From Haliotis asinina (taxonomy: Eukaryota), in assembly GCF_037392515.1 (NCBI RefSeq), contig NC_090285.1, positions 70,717,515-70,781,514 on the forward strand: a stretch of 64,000 nucleotides of DNA, written 5' to 3'. How positions within the stretch are numbered: the first letter of the stretch is position 1; every line of letters begins with the position of its first letter. The notes beneath the pieces were generated by a model that ran no database searches, was not told the origin of the DNA, and saw only the letters and a list, made by a program, of their open reading frames with translations. Position numbers and translations under genes: made by a program. Below, in pieces: positions 3,638 through 59,569 of this stretch.

Positions 3638-4267
3638 TCACAGATCGAGCCTGCTGGGTGGTGCTACACGTCTGCCTGATCTGGTGGTGACAGTCGGATT
3701 GGCTGCCGGGGTGGTGGTGACTGGGCTGCTGACGTCTCTGCGAGGTGAAGGTAGTGCACCATGTTGCACAGAGTATGGTTCGGCGAGCGGCGGTGGTGGT
3801 GTGACGTTTGGGGTGAACTGCATTTCTCCAAGTTGTCGGCTGGGCTGACTGCTCGTGTTTGCTGGAATTGTGACTTTCCTGAGAAACTTGTGGTTCCGCC
3901 TGTAAGTCCCGACATCAGTGGTGACGTGATACGATCTGGGTTTGGAGTGGTGACTCTGGATTACTCCGGGCTTCCATGACTTTCCAGTGTCAACTGGAGC
4001 GAGTCTAACTTGGTCTCCTGGCTGAAGCTCTGGGAGGGGTTTAGCACTCTTCTTAGCATCGTGGTAGAACTTTTGCTTTTGCTTCTCAAGAGTCAAGTGG
4101 CGTTTGGTCTCTTGCCTGTTGTAAGGTTGAGGAATGAGTATCTCACGTGCTGCAGGAAGTGTGTTTTCCTGCTCATTAGTAGCTGGGTCGGAGACAGGTT
4201 GATTCCTTCCAGAGGGGTTGTCCTGTAGTCGAGGAGTGCCAGGTACTTGTCTTCGCTCTTCCTCCAC
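3638..4267 (-). CDS. Integrase C-terminal region of the retrotransposon (post-frameshift frame), with a Pro-rich tail
   Basis: ORF contains ...QKQKFYHDAKKSAKPLPELQPGDQVRL..., the conserved integrase C-terminal GD.V.L region. It overlaps the upstream IN ORF at 4093-4267 in a different frame, implying a single frameshift near 4100-4150. No chromodomain is evident. Confidence 0.6.
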   Translation of the reverse strand: MEEERRQVPGTPRLQDNPSGRNQPVSDPATNEQENTLPAAREILIPQPYNRQETKRHLTLEKQKQKFYHDAKKSAKPLPELQPGDQVRLAPVDTGKSWKPGVIQSHHSKPRSYHVTTDVGTYRRNHKFLRKVTIPANTSSQPSRQLGEMQFTPNVTPPPPLAEPYSVQHGALPSPRRDVSSPVTTTPAANPTVTTRSGRRVAPPSRLDL

Positions 4268-5148
4268 ATATTTTTGACTGTTTGGACTGCCCTTTCAGCT
4301 TCCCCGTTGGAACTTTGGAAGTGTGGACTTGACGTTTCGTGTAGAATATCATAGGACTTACAGAAGTTGCTGAACTCTGCACAATCAAACTGTGGACCGT
4401 TGTCTGTTCTCAGTTTGCTCGGTATTCCGTGGATGCTGAACACCGATTTCATAGCTTCAATGGTGGATGATGCAGTAAGAGACTTGACCTCTATGGCATC
4501 GATGTACTTGGAATAATAGTCGACGAGGACCAGGTATTTTCGGCCCTGGAAGTCGAATAGATCACTCCCAACCATCTGGTAAGGTAAGTCTGGTGGTGGA
4601 GTAGGTTGGAGGGGCTCACTTTGTTGTCTCCTTGAGTATTCAGCACACTTGTCACAGTCTCTGATGGCTTGTTCTGTCTCGTCGTTCATACATGGCCAAT
4701 ACATCACTTCACGAGCTCTCTGTTTGCTCTTCACCATTCCCAGATGGGACTCATGGATGATGTTGATCATGTGTCTGCGTAGAGTAGGTGGTATGACAAT
4801 GCGCAAGCCCTTGTAAATGATGCCATCTGCTACTGAGAGTTGCTCACGTGAATCCCAGTATGGACGGGCTTCAATTGGGACGTTTCTTCTGTCGTCTGGC
4901 CATCCATTTAGGACAACTTCTGTCACATACTTGAGCTCTTTAAGTGTGAGGTCTCTGATTTCTTCATATCTGTCTGGAGTGATATCCAACATGTGGACTC
5001 TGTCCGAATCCAAGACTTCAGAGCTAGTGTGAGCTGTGTTCAAATATGCTCTAGACAAAGCATCAGCTGCCTGCATGTCAGAGCCTTTCCTGTAATTCAC
5101 TACAAGATCATAGGATTGCAGCTTTAACAACATCCGCTGCAGTCTCAT
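4093..5148 (-). CDS. RNase H C-terminus plus integrase (HHCC zinc finger and DDE core) of the retrotransposon
   Basis: The 351-aa ORF contains ADALSRAYL (the RNase H/IN junction motif), HESHLG...CDKCAEY (HHCC), and DLFDF / TDNGPQF / SNGEAER (D,D,E). It is in the same frame as the upstream pol ORF, separated from it only by one stop codon at 5173-5175. Confidence 0.8.
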   Translation of the reverse strand: MRLQRMLLKLQSYDLVVNYRKGSDMQAADALSRAYLNTAHTSSEVLDSDRVHMLDITPDRYEEIRDLTLKELKYVTEVVLNGWPDDRRNVPIEARPYWDSREQLSVADGIIYKGLRIVIPPTLRRHMINIIHESHLGMVKSKQRAREVMYWPCMNDETEQAIRDCDKCAEYSRRQQSEPLQPTPPPDLPYQMVGSDLFDFQGRKYLVLVDYYSKYIDAIEVKSLTASSTIEAMKSVFSIHGIPSKLRTDNGPQFDCAEFSNFCKSYDILHETSSPHFQSSNGEAERAVQTVKNMWRKSEDKYLALLDYRTTPLEGINLSPTQLLMSRKTHFLQHVRYSFLNLTTGKRPNAT

Positions 5149-5172
5149 GGGTGCAGAGAGGATTGGTTTCTT

Positions 5173-7473
5173 TCAAATGATCTCTAGGGGCTTGTGGTCA
5201 TTATACACAACAGTCTCTTTCCCAAAGATGTAGCAATGAAACTTGCTGGCTGCGTACACAATTGACAACATCTCTTTTTCAATTTGCACGTAGCGCTTTT
5301 CTGTCTCTGTAAGTGACCTTGAGGTGAATGCAACTGGTCTGGAATTCTGAATCAGGACTGCTCCCAAGCCTGACTGTGATGCGTCACACTGGATTTCAAC
5401 AGGTTGGTTGACATCGAAGAGAGCGAGTACTGGTTGTGAGCTGCACATCTTCTTCAGCTTGTCAAAGCTGTCTTGCTGTTCATGGTCCCAGTGAAACATG
5501 ACATCTGATTTCAGTAGGATTCGTAGAGGCGCATCAACTTTGCTGAGATCTGGAAGGAACTTTGCTAGGTACTGGACAAGTCCTAGTAGTCTTCGGACTC
5601 CTTCTTTGTCCTCGGGTGCAGGCATTTCAGTAATTGCCTGTACTTTTGCTGGGTCTGGTCTCAAGCCCTCAGCAGACACAATGTGTCCGACGTAGTGGAC
5701 TTCCGATTTCCGGATAGAGCATTTGTCAAAGTTTAGCTTGAGATTGTATCTGGTTGCTCGCTCTACAACTTGTTTCAGAATTTCATTGTGCTGAGCTGTG
5801 TCAACTCCTGCGATGAGGATATCATCCATAATAGCAGCTGCACCATTGATGCCTTCAAGCATCTGATCCATAATCCGTTGATAAATCTCGGGGGCGGACT
5901 TGATACCAAACGGTAGTCTGAGCCAACGATACCTTCCGATGGGAGTATTGAATGTTGTTAGGTATGATGACTTCTTGTCGAGCTTGATCTGTAGAAACCC
6001 TGATTTGGCGTCAAGAGTTGAGAATACCTTGGTCCCAGGAATATTAGCTACGACCTCTTCTATGGTCTTAAGGGGATGATGCTCTCTCAAGATGGCTTTA
6101 TTCAAGTCCTTTGGATCGATGCATATTCTGATTTTGTCCTTTCGGATGGAGACCACCATGGAACTGACCCACTCTGTGGGTTCTTCAACCTTGACGATGT
6201 AGCCATTTTCTTCCATCTCATGGAGTTTTTCCATGATCTTTGGTTTCAGGGCTGCTGGTTGTCTACGAGGAGGGTGAACAACTCCCCTTGCGTCTGGATC
6301 AAGCTTTATACAGTACTCTCCTGGGAGGGTCCCTGTTGTTTTCACGAGTTCCGGGAAATCCGCAAATTGTTTAACGGATTCTGAGCTGTCACTTGTCAGA
6401 TTCACTCGAGCTATGAGTCCTAGCTTTTCAGACGTGTCTCCACTGATCACGTTTTCTTGGTCAATATCAATGATGAGGAAAGTGACGGGTATAGTTTTAC
6501 CTTCGTACTTCACAGGTAGCTGAACAGCTCCTTCTGGATATATCTTGTGGTTAGAATAGGACCGGAGGACTCTTGATGACTTGGCTAATTCACACTGGAT
6601 ATTGATTTTGTCAAAACATGTTTTCACAATGATATTACACTTGGCACCCGTGTCAATACGAACTGTTGCTGGTTTGTCGCTGATTTGTACTGTTTCAATC
6701 CACTTGTCATCACTGTCTTTTTCTTGCTTATGCTGAAGAGAATGAATTTGCAGAAGGTCGTCCTCAGATTCGCTGTCGAACTCGTTGTCGTCATCTGATT
6801 GAGCTTCTTGTAAAGTGTGAACTTGTTTGCGTTTTCTCTTTGTGCACACCTGGATCCAATGGTTTGGCTTTTTACAGTAGTTGCATATAGTGTTTTTGGC
6901 TGGACACTTCCCATCAGTGTGTGCTTTGCTTATTTCTAGACCACACTTGCCACAGGTCCCTTGATCACTGTTTGTTTTAGAGTTCTTGTTTGGATCTTGA
7001 TGCTGTTTCCTCTCGGATTTTCTACTGTTACATTTGTGTGGCTTGTGTCTTGTGTCTTTAAGAGACGAAACTTTCTGATCTTCTCCTCTAATCATAGTGA
7101 GGTGCATTTGAGATACTTCAAATTGCCTACCAATGTCTAGGGCTTTTGCAAGTGTCAAATCTTGACCCTGGTCTAACAGACGTTCTTGAATTTTGGAATG
7201 AGAAACTCCTGCAATAATACTGTCAATTAAGATGTCATCTGGATTTCCATAATCACAGTCCATGAGAATTAACTTAAGGTCCTTCACAAAATTGTCAAAA
7301 TTCTCACCGACTTTTTGTTTCCTTTCTCTCAGCTTGAATCTTGCAATTCTCTTGTTTTTCCTTGGTCTGACATACGTTTCTAACTTGTTCATGATTACGT
7401 TTGGGTTGTCTTCCTCCCCTTCTTCCCATCTTAAAGTTTTATACACTTCACGGCCCTGTCGGCCGATCCACAT
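5173..7473 (-). CDS. Gag (capsid fragment plus zinc knuckle), aspartic protease, reverse transcriptase and N-terminal RNase H polyprotein of the retrotransposon
   Basis: The 766-aa ORF carries a CX2CX4HX4C knuckle (about 6844-6885), protease IDTGA (6646-6654), RT motifs LDAKSGFLQIKLD and IMDDILIAG (5821-5829), and RNase H ...VYNDHKPLEII followed by a stop that is in frame with the next ORF. Confidence 0.85.
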   Translation of the reverse strand: MWIGRQGREVYKTLRWEEGEEDNPNVIMNKLETYVRPRKNKRIARFKLRERKQKVGENFDNFVKDLKLILMDCDYGNPDDILIDSIIAGVSHSKIQERLLDQGQDLTLAKALDIGRQFEVSQMHLTMIRGEDQKVSSLKDTRHKPHKCNSRKSERKQHQDPNKNSKTNSDQGTCGKCGLEISKAHTDGKCPAKNTICNYCKKPNHWIQVCTKRKRKQVHTLQEAQSDDDNEFDSESEDDLLQIHSLQHKQEKDSDDKWIETVQISDKPATVRIDTGAKCNIIVKTCFDKINIQCELAKSSRVLRSYSNHKIYPEGAVQLPVKYEGKTIPVTFLIIDIDQENVISGDTSEKLGLIARVNLTSDSSESVKQFADFPELVKTTGTLPGEYCIKLDPDARGVVHPPRRQPAALKPKIMEKLHEMEENGYIVKVEEPTEWVSSMVVSIRKDKIRICIDPKDLNKAILREHHPLKTIEEVVANIPGTKVFSTLDAKSGFLQIKLDKKSSYLTTFNTPIGRYRWLRLPFGIKSAPEIYQRIMDQMLEGINGAAAIMDDILIAGVDTAQHNEILKQVVERATRYNLKLNFDKCSIRKSEVHYVGHIVSAEGLRPDPAKVQAITEMPAPEDKEGVRRLLGLVQYLAKFLPDLSKVDAPLRILLKSDVMFHWDHEQQDSFDKLKKMCSSQPVLALFDVNQPVEIQCDASQSGLGAVLIQNSRPVAFTSRSLTETEKRYVQIEKEMLSIVYAASKFHCYIFGKETVVYNDHKPLEII

Positions 7474-15678: not shown

Positions 15679-15816
15679 ATTTTGGCAGAGTTACCTTCTG
15701 AAAGTCCTGACCTTGATCGTCATGTGTCTGACCTTGTTGAACATGTGTGGCGTGAGGTTGCAGGGGAGATAACTGAGGTTATCACAATGCCAGTCAACAA
15801 AGTGAAGATGGACCAG
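15679..15816 (+). CDS. PARP4: PARP4 exon 6
   Basis: Acceptor tgttccag|AT. ILAELPSESPDLDRHVSDLVEHVWREVAGEITEVITMPVNKVKMDQ resembles vertebrate ..SQEVSDLVEMIWAEALGHLE..KPVNRISLNDV. Donor CAG|gtagga. Confidence 0.7.
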
Positions 15817-16589: not shown

Positions 16590-17385
16590 GTGTATTTTGG
16601 GAGAAGCTAGTAGGAGGTTGTGTACTGGTGTGTTTTGGGAGAAGCTAGTAGGAGGTTGTGTACTGATGTGTTTTGGGAGGAGCTAGTAGGAGGTTGTCTA
16701 CTGATGTGTTTTGGGAGAAGCTAGTAGGAGGTTGTTAACTGGTGTGTTTTGGGAGAAGCTAGTAGGAGGTTGTGTACTGGTGTGTTTTGGGAGAAGCTAG
16801 TAGGAGGTTATATACTGATGTGTTTTGGGAGAAGCTAGTACGAGGTTGTCTACTGATGTGTTTTGGGAGAAGTGAGAAAGAGGTTGTCTACTGCTCTGTT
16901 TTGGGAGATATTAGTACGAGGTTATCTTGTGGTATGTTTTGGGAGAAGTGAGTAGGAGGTTGTCTACTGGTGTGTTTTGAGAGAAGTTAGTATGAGGTTT
17001 TCTACTGATGTGCTTTAGGAGAAGTGAGTACGAGGTTGTCTACTGGTGTGTTTTGGGAGAAGGTAGTAGGAGGTTGTCTACTGATGTGCATTAGAAGAAG
17101 TGAGTAGGAGGTTGTCTACTGATGTGTTTTTAGAGATGTTAGTACGAGGTTATCTACAGATGTGTTTTGGGAGAAGTGAGTAGGAGGTTGTTAACTGGTG
17201 TGTTTTGGGAGAAGCTAGTAGGAGGTTGTCTAATGATGTGTTTTCGGAGATGTGAGTAGGAAGTTGTCTACTGACGTGGTTAGGGAGAAGTTAATAGGAG
17301 ATTGTCTAGTGGGGTGTTTTGGGAGAAGTGACTAGGAGGTTGTCTGCTGATGTGGTTTGGGGGAAGTATTTAGTCCTATTTTTAC
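16590..17385. repeat. Minisatellite, 38-bp unit with about 21 copies (intron 6)
   Basis: gtgttttgggagaagctagtaggaggttgtgtactgat and variants repeat. Confidence 0.85.
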
Positions 17386-17561: not shown

Positions 17562-17794
17562 GTGGGTTGGTTCTCTTACATTTAATATACTTGTGTTAAT
17601 GCCTGTGTTTGAAATAAGGTCCCTCTGACTGTCCAGCCGAGACAGGCTAGATTTCTGATGGACGGCCTAAATTTACAGCTAACCAGTCAGATGGTCTGGT
17701 AAGGAATTTAGATATTCCATACATCTGAGTGATTTCTCAGTATCTTGGTGACTGATCTGGTCTGGTTTAATCTATTTTGGGTTGGAGTACAACA

Positions 17795-18545
17795 CTCAGT
17801 GGTCATTGTGTGGGAGTACAACACTGAGACCTTGTGTGAGAGTTAGTGGTCATTGTGTGGGAGTACAACACTAAGTGGTCATTGTGTGGAAGTACAACAC
17901 TTAGTGGTCATTGTGTGGAAGTACAACACTTAGTGGTCATTGTGTGGGAGTACAACACTCAGTGATCATTGTGTGAGAGTACAACACTGAGTGATCATTG
18001 TGTGAGAGTACAACACTTAGTGATCATTGTGAGGGAGTACAACACTCAGTGGTCATTGTGTAGAAGTACAACACTGAATGATCATTGTGTGGGAGTACAA
18101 CACAGTGATGATTGTGTGGGAGTACAACACTGAGTGATCACTGTGTAGGATTACAACACTCAGTGATGATTGTGTGGGAGTACAACACTTAGTGGTCATT
18201 GTGTGGGAGTACAACACTGAGAAATTGTGTGGGAGTACAACACTCAGTGATCATTGAGTGGGAGTACAGCACTGAGTGATCATTTTGTAGGAGTACAACA
18301 CTGTGTGATCATTGTGTAGGAGTACAACACTGAGTAATCATTGTTTGGGAGTACAACACTCAGTGATTATTGTTTGGGAGTACAACACTCAGTGATCATT
18401 GTGTTGGAGTACAACACTGAATGATCATTGTGTGGGAGTACAACACTGAGTGATCTTTGTTTAGGAGTACAACACTGAGACATTGTTGGGGGGGTACAAC
18501 ACTCAGTGATCATTGTGTAGGAGTAAAACACTTAGTGGTCATTGT
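17795..18545. repeat. Minisatellite, 29-bp unit with about 26 copies (intron 7)
   Basis: gtgggagtacaacactgagtgatcattgt and variants repeat. Confidence 0.85.
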
Positions 18546-18580
18546 ATGGGAGTGCTCACAGTAATGATGGACTTTTCCAG

Positions 18581-20599: not shown

Positions 20600-20782
20600 G
20601 TAGGGATTATGTCTCATGATGTTTGACTTACAGGCTCATGTTTGAGTATGTTTGACTGTGCAAAGCTAATGTATGATGATGTTTTGACTGCCAGGTTAAT
20701 GTTTGACAATGTTTGACTTTTAGGCTGATGTTTGATAATGATTTGACTACCAGGTTGATGTTTGAATATGTTTGACTTACAG
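20600..20782. repeat. Intron 11. The entire 183-bp intron is about 6 tandem copies of a 30-bp unit, each containing a pseudo-3' splice site.
   Basis: Units of the form tgtttgacttacaggctcatgtttgagta and variants. Every unit carries ttgact(t/g/a)acag or ccag. The last unit provides the real acceptor ttacag|GCTGATGAG. Confidence 0.8.
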
Positions 20783-20939
20783 GCTGATGAGTATGCTGTG
20801 TACAGCATAAACCAGCAGCGTCTGAGATACCTAGTGGAGTTCAGCCTGGAGGGGGACCAAGTTCGGGATGTAAGTCTGGCAGACTGCCAGCAAGACATGG
20901 AGCAGACAGCTTTGGCTGACATGTTGCAGGACAACTTAG
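20783..20939 (+). CDS. PARP4: PARP4 exon 12 (catalytic Glu of the H-Y-E triad)
   Basis: ADEYAVYSINQQRLRYLVEFSLEGDQVRDVSLADCQQDMEQTALADMLQDNLG resembles vertebrate DDEFVVYKTNQVKMKYIIKFS..GDQIKD and the PARP1-type NEYIVY catalytic-Glu motif. Donor G|gtatgt, phase 1. Confidence 0.8.
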
Positions 20940-23825: not shown

Positions 23826-24489
23826 TTGTTGGACTGTTGTAGGCCTTACTAACCGTACTCCCAGTTGCAGTAAGATGTTTGTAGATGACTGACTTAGACT
23901 GATGTACTATGCAACACTACTGTTGGACTGTTGTAGGCCTTACTAACCGTACTCCCAGTTGCAGTAAGATGTTTGTAGATGACTGACTTAGACTGATGTA
24001 CTATGCAACACTACTGTTGGACTGTTGTAGGCCTTACTAACCGCACTCCCAGTTGCAGTAAGATGTTTGTAGATGACTGACTTAGACTGATGTACTATGC
24101 AACACTACTGTTGGACTGTTGTAGGCCTTACTAACCGCACTCCCAGTTGCAGTAAGATGTTTGTAGATGACTGACTTAGACTGATGTACTATGCAACACT
24201 ACTGTTGGACTGTTGTAGGCCTTACTAACCGCACTCCCAGTTGCAGTAAGATGTTTGTAGATGACTGACTTAGACTGATGTACTATGCAACACTACTGTT
24301 GGACTGTTGTAGGCCTTACTAACCGCACTCCCAGTTGCAGTAAGATGTTTGTAGATGACTGACTTAGACTGATGTACTATGCAACACTACTGTTGGACTG
24401 TTGTAGGCCTTACTAACCGCACGCCCAGTTGCAGTAAGATGTTTGTAGATGACTGACTTAGACTGATGTACTATGCATCACTACTGCAG
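23826..24489. repeat. Minisatellite, 94-bp unit with about 7 copies. The last copy is mutated into the acceptor of exon 14.
   Basis: gttggactgttgtaggccttactaaccg.actcccagttgcagtaagatgtttgtagatgactgacttagactgatgtactatgcaacactact repeats. The final unit reads ...tatgcatcactactgcag|GTGATAG. Confidence 0.85.
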
Positions 24490-24714
24490 GTGATAGTTCT
24501 CCAGGAGTACTACAACAACAGTGACACTGCTGTGGAGGCCAAGTATGTGTTTCCTCTAGATGACATGGCGGCTGTGTGTGGCTTTGAAGCGTTCATCAAT
24601 GACAAGCACATTGTAGGCGAGGTCAAAGAGAAGGAGCAAGCTCACAAGGAATACAGGAAGGCTGTCAGTGAGGGTCATGGAGCTTATCTGATGGACAGAG
24701 ATGAAGAGACACCG
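24490..24714 (+). CDS. PARP4: PARP4 exon 14 (VIT domain, N-terminal part)
   Basis: VIVLQEYYNNSDTAVEAKYVFPLDDMAAVCGFEAFINDKHIVGEVKEKEQAHKEYRKAVSEGHGAYLMDRDEETP resembles vertebrate VIVFQTYTNKSHVPIEAKYIFPLDDKAAVCGFEAFINGKHIVGEIKEKEEAQQEY.EAVTQGHGAYLM. Donor CCG|gtaagt. Confidence 0.85.
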
Positions 24715-25200
24715 GTAAGTATGGGTGAAGGTCAGCAGTGAGGGTCATGGAGCTTATCTGATGGACTGAGATGAAGAGACACCGGTAAGTATGGGTGAAG
24801 GTCAGCAGTGAGGGTCATGGAGCTTATCTGATGGACTGAGATGAAGAGACACCGGTAAGTATGGGTGAAGGTCAGCAGTGAGGGTCATGGAGCTTATCTG
24901 ATGGACTGAGATGAAGAGACACCGGTAAGTATGGGTGAAGGTCAGCAGTGAAGGTTATGTTGCTTATCTGATGGACACAGATGAAGAGACACTGATAAGT
25001 TTGGGTGAAGATCAATACTGAAGTTCGTGGAGGTGATCTGATGGACAGAGATGAAGAGACCAGTAGGTTTGGGAGAAGGTCAGTAGTGAGGGTCGTGGAG
25101 GTGATCTGATGGACAGAGATGAAGAAAGAAAGGTAAGTTCAGTCACCAGTGAAGGTTTTGGGGTGTGTCATAATGGAAGGTCATTTAGCCTTTCTGATGG
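24645..25200. repeat. 70-bp tandem array of about 6 copies that duplicates the last 45 nt of exon 14 plus its GT donor
   Basis: The unit ...agtgagggtcatggagcttatctgatggac(a/t)gagatgaagagacaccg|gtaagtatgggtgaaggtcagc repeats at 24715, 24785, 24855 and 24925, then degenerate copies. Copies 2-4 carry TGA (ggacTgag) and the read-through frame hits CAG CAG TGA. Confidence 0.85.
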
Positions 25201-25339
25201 ACAGACATGTTAAGGTGGCAGTAAGTTAGAGGTGAAGATGTGACAGGGATGTTGTGTGGGAAGGTGATTACTGAAAGGTAGCAAGCCATATTGGTTTTGC
25301 TATAAATACTAAAACCAGTTTCTGTGTTTAATGTTTCAG

Positions 25340-25504
25340 GATGTTTTTACAGTGAGTGTTGGCAACCTCCCACCCCATGCATCTGTCCTCATCAAGATTA
25401 CTTATGTAGCTGAGCTACAGGTCGAAGCAGAACTTATAAGTTTCCGGTTACCAGGCAGTGTGGCACCATGGAAACAAGACTCCGCTGCTGCTGAAATCAC
25501 TCAG
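25340..25504 (+). CDS. PARP4: PARP4 exon 15 (VIT domain)
   Basis: Acceptor tttcag|GAT. DVFTVSVGNLPPHASVLIKITYVAELQVEAELISFRLPGSVAPWKQDSAAAEITQ resembles vertebrate DVFTVSVGNLPPKAKVLIKITYITEL...ATVAPWQQD. Donor CAG|gtacgc. Confidence 0.85.
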
Positions 25505-26509: not shown

Positions 26510-27483
26510 CATAGTCCTGTCATGTAGTGCTGTCATGTAGTTGTGTCTTGTAGTGCTGTCAGGTGTCTACTCATGTAACTGTTGGTCTACAGTGTCTACT
26601 CATGTAGCTGTTGGTCTACAGTGTCTACTCATGTAACTGTTGGTTTATAGTTTCTACTCATGTAACTGTTGGTTTATAGTTTCTACTCATGTAACTGTTG
26701 GTTTATAGTTTCTACTCGTGTAACTGTTGGTTTATAGTTTCTACTCATGTAGCTCTTGGTCTGTAGTGTCTACTCATGTAACTGTTGGTTTATAGTTTCT
26801 ACTCATGTAGCTGTTGGTTTATAGTTTCTACTCATGTAACTATTGGTTTATAGTTTCTACTCATGTAACTGTTGGTTTATAGTTTCTACTCATGTAACTG
26901 TTGGTTTATAGTTTCTACTCATGTAACTGTTGGTTTATAGTTTCTACTCGTGTAGCTGTTGGTTTATAGTTTCTACTCATGTAACTGTTTGTCTGTAGTG
27001 TCTACTCATGTAACTGTTGGTTTATAGTTTCTACTCATGTAACTGTTGGTCTACAGTGTCTACTCATGTAACTGTTGGTTTATAGTTTCTACTCATGTAA
27101 CTGTTGGTTTATAGTTTCTACTCGTGTAACTGTTGGTTTATAGTTTCTACTCGTGTAACTGTTGGTTTATAGTTTCTACTCGTGTAGCTCTTGGTCTGTA
27201 GTGTCTACTCATGTAATTGTTGGTTTATAGTTTCTACTCATGTAACTGTTGGTCTGTAGGGTCTACTCATGTAACTGTTGGTCTGTAGTGTCTACTTATG
27301 TAACTGTTGGTCTGTAGTGTCTACTCGTGTAGCTGTTGGTCTGTAGTGTCTACTCGTGTATCTGTTGGTCTGTAGTGTCTACTCATGTAGCTGTTGGTCT
27401 GTAGTGTCTACTCATGTAGCTGTTGGTCTGTAGTGTCAACTCATGTAGCTGTTGGTCTGTAGTGTCTACTCATGTTCCTCCAG
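26510..27483. repeat. Minisatellite, 29-bp unit with about 32 copies. Its final unit forms the acceptor of exon 17.
   Basis: Units of the form (g/t)tctactcatgtaactgttggtttatagt and gtctactcatgtagctgttggtctgtagt. The last unit is mutated to gtctactcatgttcctccag|AGAACTG. Confidence 0.85.
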
Positions 27484-27621
27484 AGAACTGCTGCTAAGGC
27501 GGTTGTGGAGATGTGTGATGGACAGTCAATACAAGATGGCTTCCACCTCCTGATTGGGCTGGCTGAGATACACGTGCCTCGGATGTGGGTTGAGAGACAT
27601 CCGGACAAGGACATGCATCAG
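27484..27621 (+). CDS. PARP4: PARP4 exon 17
   Basis: RTAAKAVVEMCDGQSIQDGFHLLIGLAEIHVPRMWVERHPDKDMHQ resembles vertebrate ..CKAVISTMEGSSLD.SGFSLHIGLSAAYLPRMWVEKHPEKE. Donor CAG|gtaggc, phase 0. Confidence 0.8.
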
Positions 27622-28110
27622 GTAGGCTGGCAGGGGAATGATTGTATGGTTTGTGGATGGAGAGACATGCATCAGGTAGGCTGGCAGGGGAATGATTGTA
27701 TGGTTTGTGGATGGAGAGACATGCATCAGGTAGGCTGGCAGGGGAATGATTGTATGGTTTGTGGATGGAGAGACATGCATCAGGTAGGCTGGCAGGGGAA
27801 TGATTGTATGGTTTGTGGATGGAGAGACATGCATCAGGTAGGCTGGCAGGGGAATGATTTTATGGTTTGTGGATGGAGAGACATGCATCAGGTAGGCTGG
27901 CAGGGGAATGATTGTATGGTTTGTGGATGGAGAGACATGCATCAGGTAGGCTGGCAGGGGAATGATTGTATGGTTTGTGGATGGAGAGACATGCATCAGG
28001 TAGGCTGGCAGGGGAATGATTTTATGGTTTGTGGATGGAGAGACATGCATCAGGTAGGCTGGCAGGGGAATGATTGTATGGTTTGTGGATGGAGAGACAT
28101 GCATGAACCA
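27604..28110. repeat. 54-bp tandem array of about 9.5 copies that reiterates the exon 17 3' end plus its GT donor, in frame
   Basis: The unit acatgcatcag|gtaggctggcaggggaatgattgtatggtttgtggatggagag repeats. Each copy carries CAG|gtaggc at codon phase 0. The exon frame stays open through all copies (the 252-aa ORF at 27472-28230, encoding VGWQGNDCMVCGWRDMHQ per unit). Confidence 0.85.
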
Positions 28111-28235
28111 GGGGATCAAAGCTGCATGTTGTATGTGTATTTTAATTGTTGTTGTTTTAGTAATATCATGTTGTGTCAGGTTCATGTTGAATATTCTCTC
28201 CCTATTTTTTCTTTGATCTTCATTCTGTAATCTAG

Positions 28236-30904: not shown

Positions 30905-31093
30905 TCTGTGCTCATTTGTCTAAATCTCACCACTCTGGCACTTATCTCACCACTCTGGTGTATCTTATCTCACCACAATAGGATGGCATATCTCACCACT
31001 CTGGTGTGTCTTATCTCACCACTTATCTCACCACTTATCTCACCACTCTGGTGTGTCGTTTCTCACCACTTATCTCAAGCCTTCCATCAACAG
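30905..31093. repeat. Short-unit tandem repeat (about 24 bp; tatctcaccactctggtgtgtct variants) running up to the exon 22 acceptor
   Basis: About 7 degenerate copies ending ...tctcaagccttccatcaacag|GTGAAG. Confidence 0.7.
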
Positions 31094-32639: not shown

Positions 32640-34260
32640 GGCCCTGACGTTGACAGGTTGTGGAGTCGATGTTGACAGGTTGTGGAGTGTGTGTTGACAG
32701 TTTGTGGAATGGATGTTAGCATCTGGTGACCTTGATATTGACATGTTGTCTCCACAACATATCAGCATTCTACATGTCAACATCCACTCCACAACATGTC
32801 AACATCCACCCAACGACATATCATCATCCTCTCCACAACATGTCAACATCCACCCAACGACATATCATCATCCTCTCCACAACATGTCAACATCCACCCA
32901 ACGACATATCAGCATCCTCTCCACAACATGTCAACATCCACCCAACGACATATCATTATCCTCTCCACAACATGTCAACATCCACCCAACAACATATCAG
33001 CATCCTCTCCACAATGTGTCAACATCCCCCCAACGACATATCAGCATCCTCTCCACAACATGTCAACATCCACCCAACGACATATCATCATCCTCTCCAC
33101 AACATGTCAACATCCACCCAACAACATATCAGCATCCTCTCCACAATGTGTCAACATCCACCCAACAACATATCAGCATCCTACATGTCAACGTCAACTC
33201 CACAACATGTCAACATCCACCCGACAACATATCGGCATCCTACATGTCAACGTCAACTCCACAACATGTCAACATCCACCCAACAACATATCAGCATCCT
33301 CTCCACAATGTGTCAACATCCACCCAACAACATATCAGCATCCTGCATGTCAACGTCAACTCCACAACATGTCAACATCCACCCAACAACATATCGGCAT
33401 CCTACATGTCAACGTCAACTCCACAACATGTCAACATCCACCCAACAACATATCAGCATCCTCTCCACAATGTGTCAACATCCACCCAACAACATATCAG
33501 CATCCTACATGTCAACATCCACTCCACAACATGTCAAAACCCACTCCACAAAATGTCAACATCCACTCCATGACATGTGAACATCCACAACATGTCAAAA
33601 CCCACTCCACTACATGTCAGCATCCACTCCACAGCATATCAGCATCCACTCCACAGCATGTCAGCATCCTCTCTACAACATGTCAATATCCTCTCCACTA
33701 CATGTCAACATTCTCTCCACTACATGTCAACATCCTCTCCACTACATGTCAACATCCACTCCACTACATGTCAACATCCACTCCACTACATGTCAACATC
33801 CACTCCACAACATGTCAACATCCGCTCCACTGCATGTCAACATCCACTCCACTACATGTCAACATCCACTCCACAACATGTCAACATCCGCTCCACTACA
33901 TGTCAACATCCACTCCACTACATGTCAACATCCACTCCACTACATGTCAACATCCACTCCACTACATGTCAACATCCACTCCACAACACGTCAACAGCCT
34001 CTCCACTACATGTCAGCATCCACAGCACAACATGTCAACATCCACTCCACAGCATGTCAGCATCCACAGCACAACATGTCAACATCCACTCCACAGCATG
34101 TCAGCATCCTCTCTACAACATGTCAATATCCTCTCCACTACATGTCAACATCCACAGCACAACATGTCAACATCCTCTCCATTACACGTCAACAGCCTCT
34201 TAAGACGTTGTGGAGAGGATGTTGACATGTAGTGGAGTAGATGTTGACATGGTGTAACTG
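32640..34260. repeat. Intronic satellite array of about 1.6 kb. The base unit is 22 bp (ctccactacatgtcaacatcca), with 44/66-bp higher-order variants, and it is strongly strand-asymmetric (C/A-rich). Both ends carry 2-3 inverted copies of the unit.
   Basis: Main array in one orientation from about 32745 to 34200. Reverse-orientation units lie at 32645-32712 (gttgacaggttgtggag...) and 34205-34250 (gttgtggagaggatgttgacatgtagtggag...). The shared flank agagtatgtggc.c...gttgaca occurs at about 32621 and about 34262. The array generates ORFs up to 478 aa that are artefactual. Confidence 0.8.
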
Positions 34261-45899: not shown

Positions 45900-47035
45900 G
45901 GTATCTCATTCCCAAACTTTCTGTGTCCCATTCCCAAACCACTCTGTATCCCACTCCTAAACCCTTTGTATATCACTCCCAAAACCTCTGTATCCCACTC
46001 CTAAACCCTTTGTATCTCACTCCCAAACCCTCTGTATCCCACTCCTAAACCCTTTGTATCCCAAACTGAGACCTCTGTATCCCATTCCCACAACCTCTGT
46101 ATCCCAAACCCAAACCCTCTGTATCCCATCCCGACAACCTCTGTATCCCAAACCCAAACCCTTTGTATCCCATACCCACAACCTCTGTATCCCAAACCCA
46201 AACCACTCTGTATCCCACTCCTAAACACTTTGTATCTCACTCTCAAACCCTCTGTATCCCATTCCCACAACCTCAGTATTCCAAACCCAAACCCAACCCC
46301 TCTGTATCCCATTCCCACACCCTCTGTATCCCACTCCTAAACCCTTTGTATCTCACTCCCAAACCCTCTGTATCCCACTCCGAAACCCTTTGTATCTCAC
46401 TCCCAAACCACTCTGTATCCCACTCCTAAATCCTTTGTATCTCACTCCCAAACCCTCTGTATCCCACTCCTAAACCATTTGTATCTCACTCCCAAACCCT
46501 CTGTATCCCACACCCACACCCTCTGTATCCCACTCCTAAACCCTTTGTATCTCACTTCCAAACCACTCTGTATCCCAATCCTAAACCCTTTGTATCTCAC
46601 TCCCAAACCCTCTGTATCCCACACCCCCACCCTCTGTATCCCACTCCTAAACCCTTTGTATCTCACTCCCAAACCACTCTGTATCCCACTCCTAAACCCT
46701 TTGTATCTCACTCCCAAACCCTCTGTATCCCATTCCCACAACATTTGTATCCCAAACCCAAACCCTCTGTATCCCATTCCAACACCCTCTGTATCCCAAA
46801 CCCTCTGTATCCCACACCCAAACCACTCTGTATCCCACTCCTAAACCCTTTGTATCTCACTCCCAAACCCTCTGTATCCCACACCCACACCCTCTGTATC
46901 CCACACCCACACCCTCTGTATCCCACTCTCAAACCCTCTGTATCCCAAACCCAAACCCTCTGTATCCCACACCCACACCCTCTGTATCCCACACCCACTG
47001 TATCCCACACCCAAACCACATGTCATTGTATCCCA
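45900..47035. repeat. Satellite array of about 1.1 kb, with a roughly 22-bp base unit (ctctgtatcccactcctaaacc / ctttgtatctcactcccaaacc), starting exactly at the tail of the preceding SINE
   Basis: The array begins ...aaactcactcactcactcacttggtatctcattcccaaactttctgtgtcccattcccaaacc... A SINE-body fragment in the same orientation follows the array. The array generates artefactual ORFs on both strands (46001-47077). Confidence 0.8.
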
Positions 47036-57440: not shown

Positions 57441-57828
57441 CTTGATCTAAGAAAACATCAAGTGACTGTCAGATGATTTGTCCTTTCAAATACGTAGGGG
57501 CCAGGGGGATATGTCATCTTTTGATGACTCTTGTAGTCACTGAGTATTGAAACATTGTGTATCATTTTGTGTCTGAATTCATCATACAGCACTGACCTCC
57601 TGTCTTGGCAAAATATATTATTGCAGCCATTGTAGTAAACAAAACAGTAAATTGCATACAATGTTGATAGTTACATATTTTTCATGACATTGCTGTGGGA
57701 AATACTGTATCTGTTTCAATGATAATTATCCTTGTTATCGCGGTCGTCCTGATGGTGTAAAGGACATTCCTTGAATAGTTTGGATAACCGTCACAGCCTT
57801 ATAATACCTGGAGACTGTGTTTCTTCAG

Positions 57829-59342
57829 GTATGGAAGAGGAAGAGAGGATGTTTGATGTCAAGAGCGCAGCTCACTGCACAGCAAGAGACCAGCCAGAAG
57901 AAGATCTGCTTGGAATGGAAGTGGACGCTTCTTCTCCTGTTCCTTCTCTTGTCTTGGTTGCAGAACACACAACCATTCTACCACAAGCAGAAGTCATTCC
58001 AACTGGTATGGCATTCTCCCTGACACCTGCTTCAACGACTTTCTCATCTGGGTCAGTAGAGAAGTCTAAACATGCTGAAACATCCTCTTTTAGATCTAGA
58101 TTTGGTAGTTATGGAATGGGGTCCTCTGCTACACAAAGTATCCAAACTGCCAGACAAGTTGAAAGGAGACCTGTTTTAACATCTTTCTTATCTGGAGCAG
58201 TAGATATGTCGACTGCAGAAAAATCATCTTTTGGATCTGGATTTGGTTCTAATGAGCAAGTGTCATTTAACACAGACATCAAGGAGCAGATTCAAGGATT
58301 CCAGGATTCACAGAGCTGCATGTCATCTCCTTCATCAGATGTTGTCATGCAGCAGCAGCAGCTGCAGCAGCCGACACAGATACACCCGATGCTGGCACAT
58401 CAGCCTCCAGTCACATGGAATTCCCTGTTTTTAAACAAGCATGCAGATGAACAACTGTATCAGAGTAGTAAATTTGGAATGCAACAGGAACAACAACAGG
58501 CATATCCTTCTTCTGAGGAAAGTAGTTCCTTGTTTGGACAAAGCTACACAAAGCAACAAACATATCAGAGTGGTTTGTTTGGAATGCAAGAGCAACAACA
58601 ACAGCAACAAAAGTTCCCACCACAACAGATGCCCTTTGGTGGAGAGCCAGTGTCATTTGGAGGAGGAGGTGGAAGAGGATTTGGAGGAAGAGGAGGATTT
58701 GGAGGAAGAGGAGGATTTGGAGGAAGAGGAGGAGGATTTGGAGGACTATCTCATCCACATCAGACTAACTTTAGTGGACAGTCGCTGTCATTTGGAGGTG
58801 GATTATTTGGAAGAAGGGGATTTGGAGGAGGAGAAGGAGTAGAATTTGGAGGAGGATTAGCTAGAGCCTACTCTGGGAGTCAGATGACACAGGGTTTCAT
58901 CTCAGGCAAGAAGTCACAAGAGACTGAAGTAACTGCAGCCAAGTTTTTTGGAGATGTGGAAGTACCAGAGAAACCAGATGCTGCACTTAATCAGAGTGGA
59001 ATATTCCAGGGATCAGACCCTTGTACCCCAATATTTCCTTCATTGTTTCCTCAAGTACAGGTGATGAATGGGAGAGGTGAAGCATCCAGCTCTGACCAGG
59101 TGATGTCTGAACCTCTAGCTGAGCCAACAAGCAATAAAGTTACCCAGGGAGGCTATGGATTCAGCTTCCAATCAGGTTTCATGAATGGTGGTACCATGGG
59201 GATGGTTTCAGGGGATGTGACAAGAGGATCAGCACCACTAGAACTTGGAGGTTATGTGACAAGTGCTGCAGCTGCAGCAGCTCACTATAGGAACCCCATA
59301 CCTCAAAGTAACATCCAGATGGTCCTCCAGCTACAGCAACAG
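57829..59342 (+). CDS. PARP4: PARP4 exon 31, a large low-complexity exon that is S/F/G-rich, has poly-Q stretches and an RGG/FGG-box run
   Basis: Acceptor tttcttcag|GT. (G)MEEEERMFDVKSAAH... with internal duplication (...SSFRSRFGSYGMGSS... / ...SSFGSGFGSNEQ...). GGGGRGFGGRGGFGGRGGFGGRGGGFGG. Ends ...NIQMVLQLQQQ with donor CAG|gtgagt, phase 0. Composition is comparable to the recalled S/P/F-rich vertebrate PARP4 C-terminal region. Confidence 0.6.
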
Positions 59343-59569
59343 GTGAGTGGGAGTACTAACAAGTGTCCTTCTCTGTCCAGACTGTCTTCTCACTCATTTG
59401 GTGAATATCATAGAGATATAACAAAAACTTCACTTGACTCAGGTTCAAGTGCTTAAGGTAGCTCTTCAATCTATTTTCAGTAACCAGTGGACTCAATCCA
59501 AAAGCAATACAAAATTAGTGCTAGATTAAGAGTAATCTCAAATATAGCAGATGTTATGTAGTGTAATGC

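Follow-up and report, generated by a model that had tools for sequence, protein, structure and literature searches.

Background

The question raised by this locus is how an exon of a conserved gene comes to be followed by a row of copies of its own 3' end and donor site, and whether such an arrangement calls for a mechanism tied to splice junctions. A sequence-only reading of the window, by which we mean the whole 64,000-nucleotide stretch of DNA analysed, had described the row as a tandem duplication of the exon end together with its GT donor, had pointed to a second array of the same kind in the gene, and had taken the pair as a sign of a locus-specific mechanism. We consider it probable that the structure is a junction-spanning intronic minisatellite, of the type known as "mirages" in amphioxus and from the human F7 gene, and that it was born of ordinary tandem duplication.

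The PARP4-like gene and its ancestral exon boundary

The array lies in a PARP4-like gene, whose exons were mapped in tblastn searches that used PARP4 fragments of molluscs, cnidarians and vertebrates, together with two related genomic loci, as queries (coordinates are those of the window and refer to its + strand unless stated otherwise). Twenty consecutive exons, between 15679 and 32383, splice into 935 amino acids without stops. In homology searches the best named homologues of the gene come from Lottia, Saccostrea and corals, at 59–66% identity, and a neighbor-joining tree, which is crude and from which cephalochordates, ambulacrarians and annelids are absent, groups the window sequence with molluscs; the GC content of the window is 40.5%. 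Two neighboring exons, 24490-24714 (225 nt, phase 0/0) and 25340-25504 (165 nt, phase 0/0, with the conserved sequence DVFTVSVGNLPP...AAEITQ), encode a VIT domain (Pfam match, E = 1e-34). The first of them, hereafter the VIT exon, was "exon 14" of the sequence-only reading and, with the upstream exons mapped in part, the three-exon offset between it and "exon 17" is correct.

The VIT exon ends in ...GAA GAG ACA CCG (EETP), and the resulting ETP/gt boundary (the slash in splice-site motifs marking the junction) is conserved across about 30 orthologous loci, where it reads ...CC(N)/gt at the same place. The single-exon ORF fragments from other animals all end in ...EETP, followed by a V that is read from the gt of the intron. 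Because the boundary is conserved in the orthologous loci, the first donor of the window sequence is the ancestral one, and the same conservation, along with the stop-free 935-residue model, backs the conclusion that the terminal unit of the array holds the authentic exon–intron boundary.

Anatomy of the array

When its copies are read in register, the segment 24666-25241 resolves into eight recognisable copies of a 70-bp unit, arranged head to tail; Tandem Repeats Finder reports 24666-25125 with a period of 70, 6.6 copies, 91% matches and a score of 710. Taken together, the in-register reading and the program output confirm the tandem duplication of exon end and GT donor. The claim had turned on whether the repeat unit really takes in the exon-terminal nucleotides, and this was checked: copy 1, the founder unit at 24666-24735, consists of the last 49 nt of the exon and the first 21 nt of the intron. 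The 70-bp unit length given earlier is right, whereas the exon share had been put at 45 nt instead of 49 and the copy number at about six instead of the eight that can be followed to about 25241.

Copies 2, 3 and 4 (24736-24805, 24806-24875 and 24876-24945) are 70 nt each and mutually 100% identical, and they differ from copy 1 by a single A-to-T change at unit position 32 (A at 24697; T at 24767, 24837 and 24907). The remaining copies are degenerate: copy 5 (24946-25015, 70 nt), copy 6 (25016-25083, 68 nt), copy 7 (25084-25171, 88 nt) and copy 8 (25172-25241, 70 nt) show identities to copy 1 of 0.86, 0.81, 0.66 and 0.66, respectively, and retain the ancestral A at the site of the change. The core CTGATGGAC occurs eight times, at spacings of 70, 70, 70, 70, 70, 68 and 88 nt. 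Four 70-nt copies at 99–100% identity cannot have arisen by chance. An origin from a dispersed repeat or mobile element was rejected, as the 70-bp unit has no occurrence outside the array within the window; the head-to-tail arrangement of a unit tens of base pairs long is that of a minisatellite. In the one haplotype represented here, the combination of identical internal copies (2–4) and divergent distal copies fits recent turnover, a pattern described for the amphioxus globin gene BflGb6. The array is followed by a unique intron tail of 98 nt (25242-25339), which ends in the acceptor ...aatgtttcag, and without the array the intron would be of about 119 nt (21 + 98), resembling the array-free introns of the gene.

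Three perfectly identical 70-bp copies are the kind of sequence that assemblers can miscount, and the possibility that copy number or junction placement stems from mis-assembly of a repetitive or heterozygous region deserves consideration, the more so as the authors of the amphioxus PGBD5 study raised the same concern for similar repeats before arguing against it (PMC3902484). An ordered gradient of decay and length variants of 68 and 88 nt are, however, not features that an assembler invents; ten further arrays of the same style lie in the gene, and equivalent structures are present in independent assemblies of other species. We regard an assembly artefact as extremely improbable.

Donor sites, stop codons and predicted splicing

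The authentic donor, CCG/GTAAGT with its GT at 24715-24716, matches the U1-complementary consensus at 8 of 9 positions and is among the strongest of the gene; it alone joins in frame to the conserved DVFTVSVGNLPP exon. Pseudo-donors identical to it follow at 24785, 24855 and 24925, and the four sites thus stand where the sequence-only reading had listed them. The donor of copy 5 has been lost through a GT-to-AT change, and further donor-like sites occur at 25063 (CCA/GTAGGT), at 25133 (AAG/GTAAGT, the consensus) and at 25221 (GCA/GTAAGT).

The copies had also been said to carry premature stops, and they do. Read-through past the exon gives CAG CAG TGA, with the first stop, TGA, at 24739-24741, and each downstream pseudo-donor leads to a stop after 8 extra codons; in the frame equivalent to that of the exon, the A-to-T change of copies 2–4 gives rise to a TGA, and a period of 70 nt does not preserve the reading frame. 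Since every donor other than the first adds a premature stop, functional mRNA must come from the first one. Reading-frame logic and the parallel with F7, LMNB2 and the amphioxus mirages lead us to infer nearly exclusive use of the first donor: the upstream site would be selected, whether on a first-come basis, by 5'-to-3' scanning or by exon definition, and the pseudo-donors would be silent or used at a low level. The earlier expectation that use of a cryptic donor triggers nonsense-mediated decay (NMD) holds insofar as pseudo-donor transcripts, with their premature stops, would in principle be NMD substrates; widespread NMD is not to be expected, because, where such arrays have been characterised, splicing ignores the pseudo-donors or resorts at most to the nearest of them. 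The four identical strong donors and the AAG/GTAAGT site at 25133 could compete with one another, and such competition would matter most if the organism splices by intron definition, which favors acceptor-proximal donors.

The same intron in related species

At the orthologous donor there is no array in loci L001 and L002, and across the roughly 30 orthologous loci examined both the array and the alternative donors are missing, L023 excepted. In this locus (JAAUXV010202434.1, 385-615) the end of the same VIT exon is duplicated together with its donor, with a period of 94 nt (65 exon + 29 intron), in two copies that are 96% identical and a degenerate third; to judge from the 94-nt period and the different boundaries, the duplication is independent of that in the window. 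Acceptor junctions of PARP4 are duplicated in two other species: L026 carries, at 2111-2441, 3.9 copies of an 85-bp unit made of the acceptor and the first 20 nt of the exon after the VIT exon, and L002 carries, at 17742-17925, 2.3 copies of an 81-bp unit with the acceptor and 33 nt of the VWA exon. On the evidence of their unit lengths and boundaries, which differ, the duplications in L023, L026 and L002 arose separately and belong to a generic type of event that recurs. Junction-spanning arrays number about 3 per 336 HSP ends in the relatives, as against 3 per 38 junctions in the window, and their recurrence at the VIT intron is partly a matter of sampling bias, since the loci were fetched around the VIT exon. 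Candidate junction arrays in L008, L011 and L033 were rejected, being low-complexity (TCTG)n or T-rich tracts without exon sequence.

Comparison of this intron among related species had been put forward as a means of timing the duplication. It yields the absence of the array from L001 and L002, and it does not yield a date: the closest loci share just 84–88% protein identity over the VIT exon, and the searches found no same-genus sequence.

The orthologous loci also bear on whether the array might serve a function, its copies acting as decoy or booster U1-binding sites and as exonic-enhancer copies that strengthen definition of the VIT exon, or tuning PARP4 levels through unproductive splicing under regulation (AS-NMD). 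That the repeated donor ranks among the two strongest of the gene, that three exact copies have been maintained and that all pseudo-donor products contain premature stops would be compatible with such a role, as would the constitutive use of the nearest pseudo-sites in IFI6 and CBS (PMC1557585). Yet an array absent from the examined orthologues, save for the independent two-to-three-copy duplication in L023, and decaying with distance as neutral sequence does, is not what a functional element would lead one to expect; recent amplification explains the identical copies better, and most introns of the gene are filled by similar arrays with unrelated units. A functional array is, in our judgment, very improbable. 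A conserved, regulated alternative 5' splice site or AS-NMD element was rejected as well, the alternative donors being absent from the orthologues and the L023 case being independent.

Other arrays in the gene and in the window

Tandem arrays are frequent in this gene: 11 arrays with unrelated units (periods 23–94) account for 34% of the mapped 16.7 kb, and arrays fill 47–90% of most introns that host them. The second donor-junction array, the "exon 17 array" of the sequence-only reading, was correctly recognised as such and as being in frame. It extends over 27610-28104 (54 bp × 9.2, 99% identical), and its unit consists of 12 nt of exon 27484-27621 and 42 nt of intron. Along this array a 252-aa ORF stays open (27472-28230), and splicing from a downstream donor would, by the sequence of the 54-bp unit, lengthen the protein by VGWQGNDCMVCGWRDMHQ per unit. 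A third junction, absent from the earlier reading, is an acceptor: the 29/59-bp unit of the array at 20619-20789 contains gacttacag/GCTGATG, that is, the acceptor together with the initial 7 nt of exon 20783-20939. The array at 23827-24486 (94 bp × 7.0, 99% identical) comes to within 3 nt of the AG acceptor of the VIT exon, which consequently has arrays on both sides. Within coding sequence, exon 15679-15816 contains an in-frame 21-bp × 2 repeat (15707-15748) that encodes PDLDRHV/SDLVEHV.

Several further features of the window may be recorded. Within 32649-34251 there is a 1.4-kb array of about 66 copies of the 22-bp unit ACATGTCAACATCCACTCCACA, with a short array of inverted copies of this unit on either side of it (32649-32717 and 34210-34251); a second 22-bp array, C-rich, lies at 45901-46997. 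At 3638-7473 on the - strand stand three long ORFs in succession (766, 351 and 209 aa), whose translations, as read, resemble gag-protease-RT and integrase sequences of an LTR retrotransposon. For an uninterrupted 561-aa ORF at 57771-59456, whose product has stretches rich in RGG/FGG and in Q, a search of 5.8 billion proteins returned no homologue at E <= 1e-5. An Rfam scan gave no hits at the gathering threshold.

Chance seeding or a mechanism linked to splice sites

In view of such a density of arrays, the number that happen to cross a splice junction was compared with a null model. All arrays were collapsed to one unit each, leaving 11.55 kb with 38 junctions, and 11 seeds with the observed unit lengths were dropped at random; an array was scored as spanning when 5 nt or more of its unit lay on either side of the junction. 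The model predicts 1.33 spanning arrays, or 1.57 when seeds falling entirely in exons are barred, against the 3 observed, and under random seeding the probability of two or more is 0.39–0.48 and that of three or more 0.14–0.20. The junction-spanning count in the gene is within chance, given its array density. Junction-spanning arrays thus occur at about the random-seeding rate once the density of arrays is taken into account, and two per gene need no special mechanism.

The position of the junction inside the units points in the same direction. In donor-type units the junction lies at arbitrary offsets (49/70 and 12/54 in the window, 65/94 in L023) and never at the unit boundary, and the acceptor-type units include 7/29 exon nucleotides in the window, 33/81 in L002 and 20/85 in L026. 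The units carry intron sequence downstream of the donor, which excludes a spliced template or spliced cDNA as their source, and the arbitrary offsets together with the intron inside the units make a poor fit to junction-primed slippage or to copying of spliced intermediates. That a pair of such arrays in a single gene points to a locus-specific mechanism is not supported, on several counts: the probability of two or more by chance, the arbitrary offsets, the duplication of acceptor junctions as well as donor junctions, and the existence of a described class to which the arrays conform. The specific candidates that had been named, R-loops, template switching on spliced cDNA and slippage primed at the junction, fare no better, the strand skew not being uniform, intron being present in the units and the unit lacking unusual self-structure.

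The properties of the units themselves were considered with the same question in mind. GC skew of the arrays is strong and its sign is not uniform: 10 of 12 are G-rich on the sense strand, which would suit a transcription-associated process, and two are strongly C-rich, so that strand asymmetry of the R-loop type is not supported. A dimer of the 70-bp unit folds no better than shuffled sequences (z = +0.89), and slippage driven by hairpins was rejected. No clear terminal microhomology was found at the boundary of the 70-bp unit, just an in-register GAAGG 4 nt upstream of the unit start. The hexamer CTGATG/CATCAG is present in 5 of 12 array units (those at 20619, 23827, 24666 and 27610 among them); as a shared recombinogenic core it is unconvincing, being marginal in comparison with shuffled units, with P of about 0.03 for 6-mers only and uncorrected, and with 5-mers and 7-mers not significant.

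One observation stands apart. The arrays that do not span a junction crowd the 3' splice sites: 5 of the 8 end within 30 nt of one, where 0.6 would be expected for uniform placement within introns. These are 16591-17367, 17845-18553, 23827-24486, 26566-27475 and 30924-31077, which end 26, 27, 3, 8 and 16 nt, respectively, upstream of the next exon. About 1 in 20,000 random placements reached this count, in a small sample and with a threshold chosen post hoc. Among the relatives, where arrays are few and exon ends approximate, no such crowding was seen. The crowding hints that seeding may not be fully random relative to splice sites, and a mechanism linked to splice sites owes its survival as a hypothesis to this feature alone. 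As an explanation, a master copy next to the exon that is kept by selection is not supported: in donor-side arrays the copies degenerate with distance from the exon, in acceptor-side arrays they do not improve on approaching it, and register-walking is noisy at short periods.

Mutation associated with splice junctions, through R-loops, forks stalled at splice sites or template switching on splicing intermediates, would account for the acceptor crowding, for three junction-spanning arrays in one gene and for the independent duplication of the same donor junction in L023, and it could draw on the statement that the mechanism generating mirages is unclear (PMC3087553). The arbitrary offsets, the intron 3' of the donor, the chance-level number of spanning arrays, the two C-rich arrays, a unit without structure-forming propensity, the want of a convincing common core motif, the lack of crowding in the relatives and the sampling of loci around the VIT exon all weigh against it, and we regard such an origin of the array as quite improbable. 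The broader proposition, drawn from the three spanning arrays, the five of eight others near 3' splice sites and the L023 duplication, that minisatellite formation in this gene may be mechanistically coupled to splice sites is also quite unlikely. If it were true, transcription- or splicing-coupled mutation would supply the missing mechanism for mirage formation and the mirage phenomenon would extend beyond cephalochordates.

A possible history of the array

Under the reading preferred here, that of a junction-spanning minisatellite arising by ordinary tandem duplication, the founding event would have been a tandem duplication of 70 bp that by chance lay across the boundary of a short intron. 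Replication slippage or unequal exchange between sister chromatids is the likely process, and the introns of this gene form minisatellites with unusual ease. The duplication would have been tolerated because the upstream donor still gave the correct mRNA, and the array could then have grown by further unequal exchange. From that point the 5'-most copy, as the real end of the exon, would have been kept constant by selection on the VIT domain, whereas all downstream copies would have been intronic passengers, the oldest of them (copies 5–8) having decayed. A copy with the A-to-T change may recently have been re-amplified or homogenised into the three identical units, copies 2–4. For both the slippage or unequal-exchange origin and the splicing outcome, this scenario leans on what has been found for F7 and the mirages.

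Loci of this kind carry a caution for genome annotation: where minisatellite-rich invertebrate genomes reiterate exon ends and splice sites, gene prediction and the calling of splice junctions can go astray. By lining up four identical strong donors, such loci also set up a natural experiment on how a 5' splice site is chosen; they may provide raw material for new exons and introns, and they are likely VNTR markers.

Relation to known systems

Tandem duplication within genes has been linked to the birth of introns in the Rogers model, according to which an intron is gained when a segment containing AGGT is duplicated in tandem (internal gene duplication, discussed in PMC3087553 and PMC4974935). 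Mirage arrays have themselves been suggested as a source from which new introns and exons could form. The PARP4-like array resembles that model in that a tandem duplication has placed duplicated splice signals in a gene. It differs in that the intron is ancestral, as the approximately 30 orthologues indicate, and that no new intron or exon has been created; with the intron position ancestral, the copies interrupted by stops and the 70-nt period breaking the frame, intron gain by tandem duplication is ruled out for this locus.

A closer parallel is offered by human minisatellites that begin at an exon end. In F7 intron 7 (37 bp, 5–9 copies), as in LMNB2 and PDGF, the first monomer spans the boundary and only the authentic upstream donor is used, whereas in the minisatellites of IFI6 (6-16) and CBS intron 13 the two nearest pseudo-sites are used as well; experiments on F7 revealed that its pseudo-sites are functional and yet remain unused while the upstream site is intact (Borensztajn et al., PMC1557585). 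What the PARP4-like array has in common with all five is a first monomer that spans the boundary, with the result that identical pseudo-donors follow the authentic donor. It is set apart by the exon share of its unit (49 nt, against 4 nt in F7) and by the strong degeneracy of its older copies; moreover, the human arrays are mammalian, and the rules of splice-site choice may differ in this invertebrate.

A further resemblance is to the amphioxus mirages, which have been reported for Adh3, the globin genes BflGb6 and BflGb9, TnC, PGBD5 and other loci, which affect both 5' and 3' boundaries while leaving regular splicing intact, and in whose clusters the central units are homogenised by concerted evolution and the edge units divergent (PMC3087553, PMC3902484). 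Amphioxus is a cephalochordate; the window sequence groups with molluscs in our crude tree, which contains no cephalochordates, and PARP4 is not among the hosts of mirages named in these two studies. In other respects the correspondence is extensive: the terminal unit is the real exon–intron boundary, donor and acceptor boundaries are both affected in one genome, the units measure from tens to about 160 bp and reiterate AG/GT signals, central units are alike and edges divergent, and the host genome is rich in intronic minisatellites. Judged by its sequence organisation, the PARP4-like array has the structural features of the mirage or F7-type class of junction-spanning minisatellites already described, and among the amphioxus examples the mirage of BflGb9, in which it is likewise the 3' boundary of an exon that has been duplicated, is a counterpart of the array at 24666-25241.
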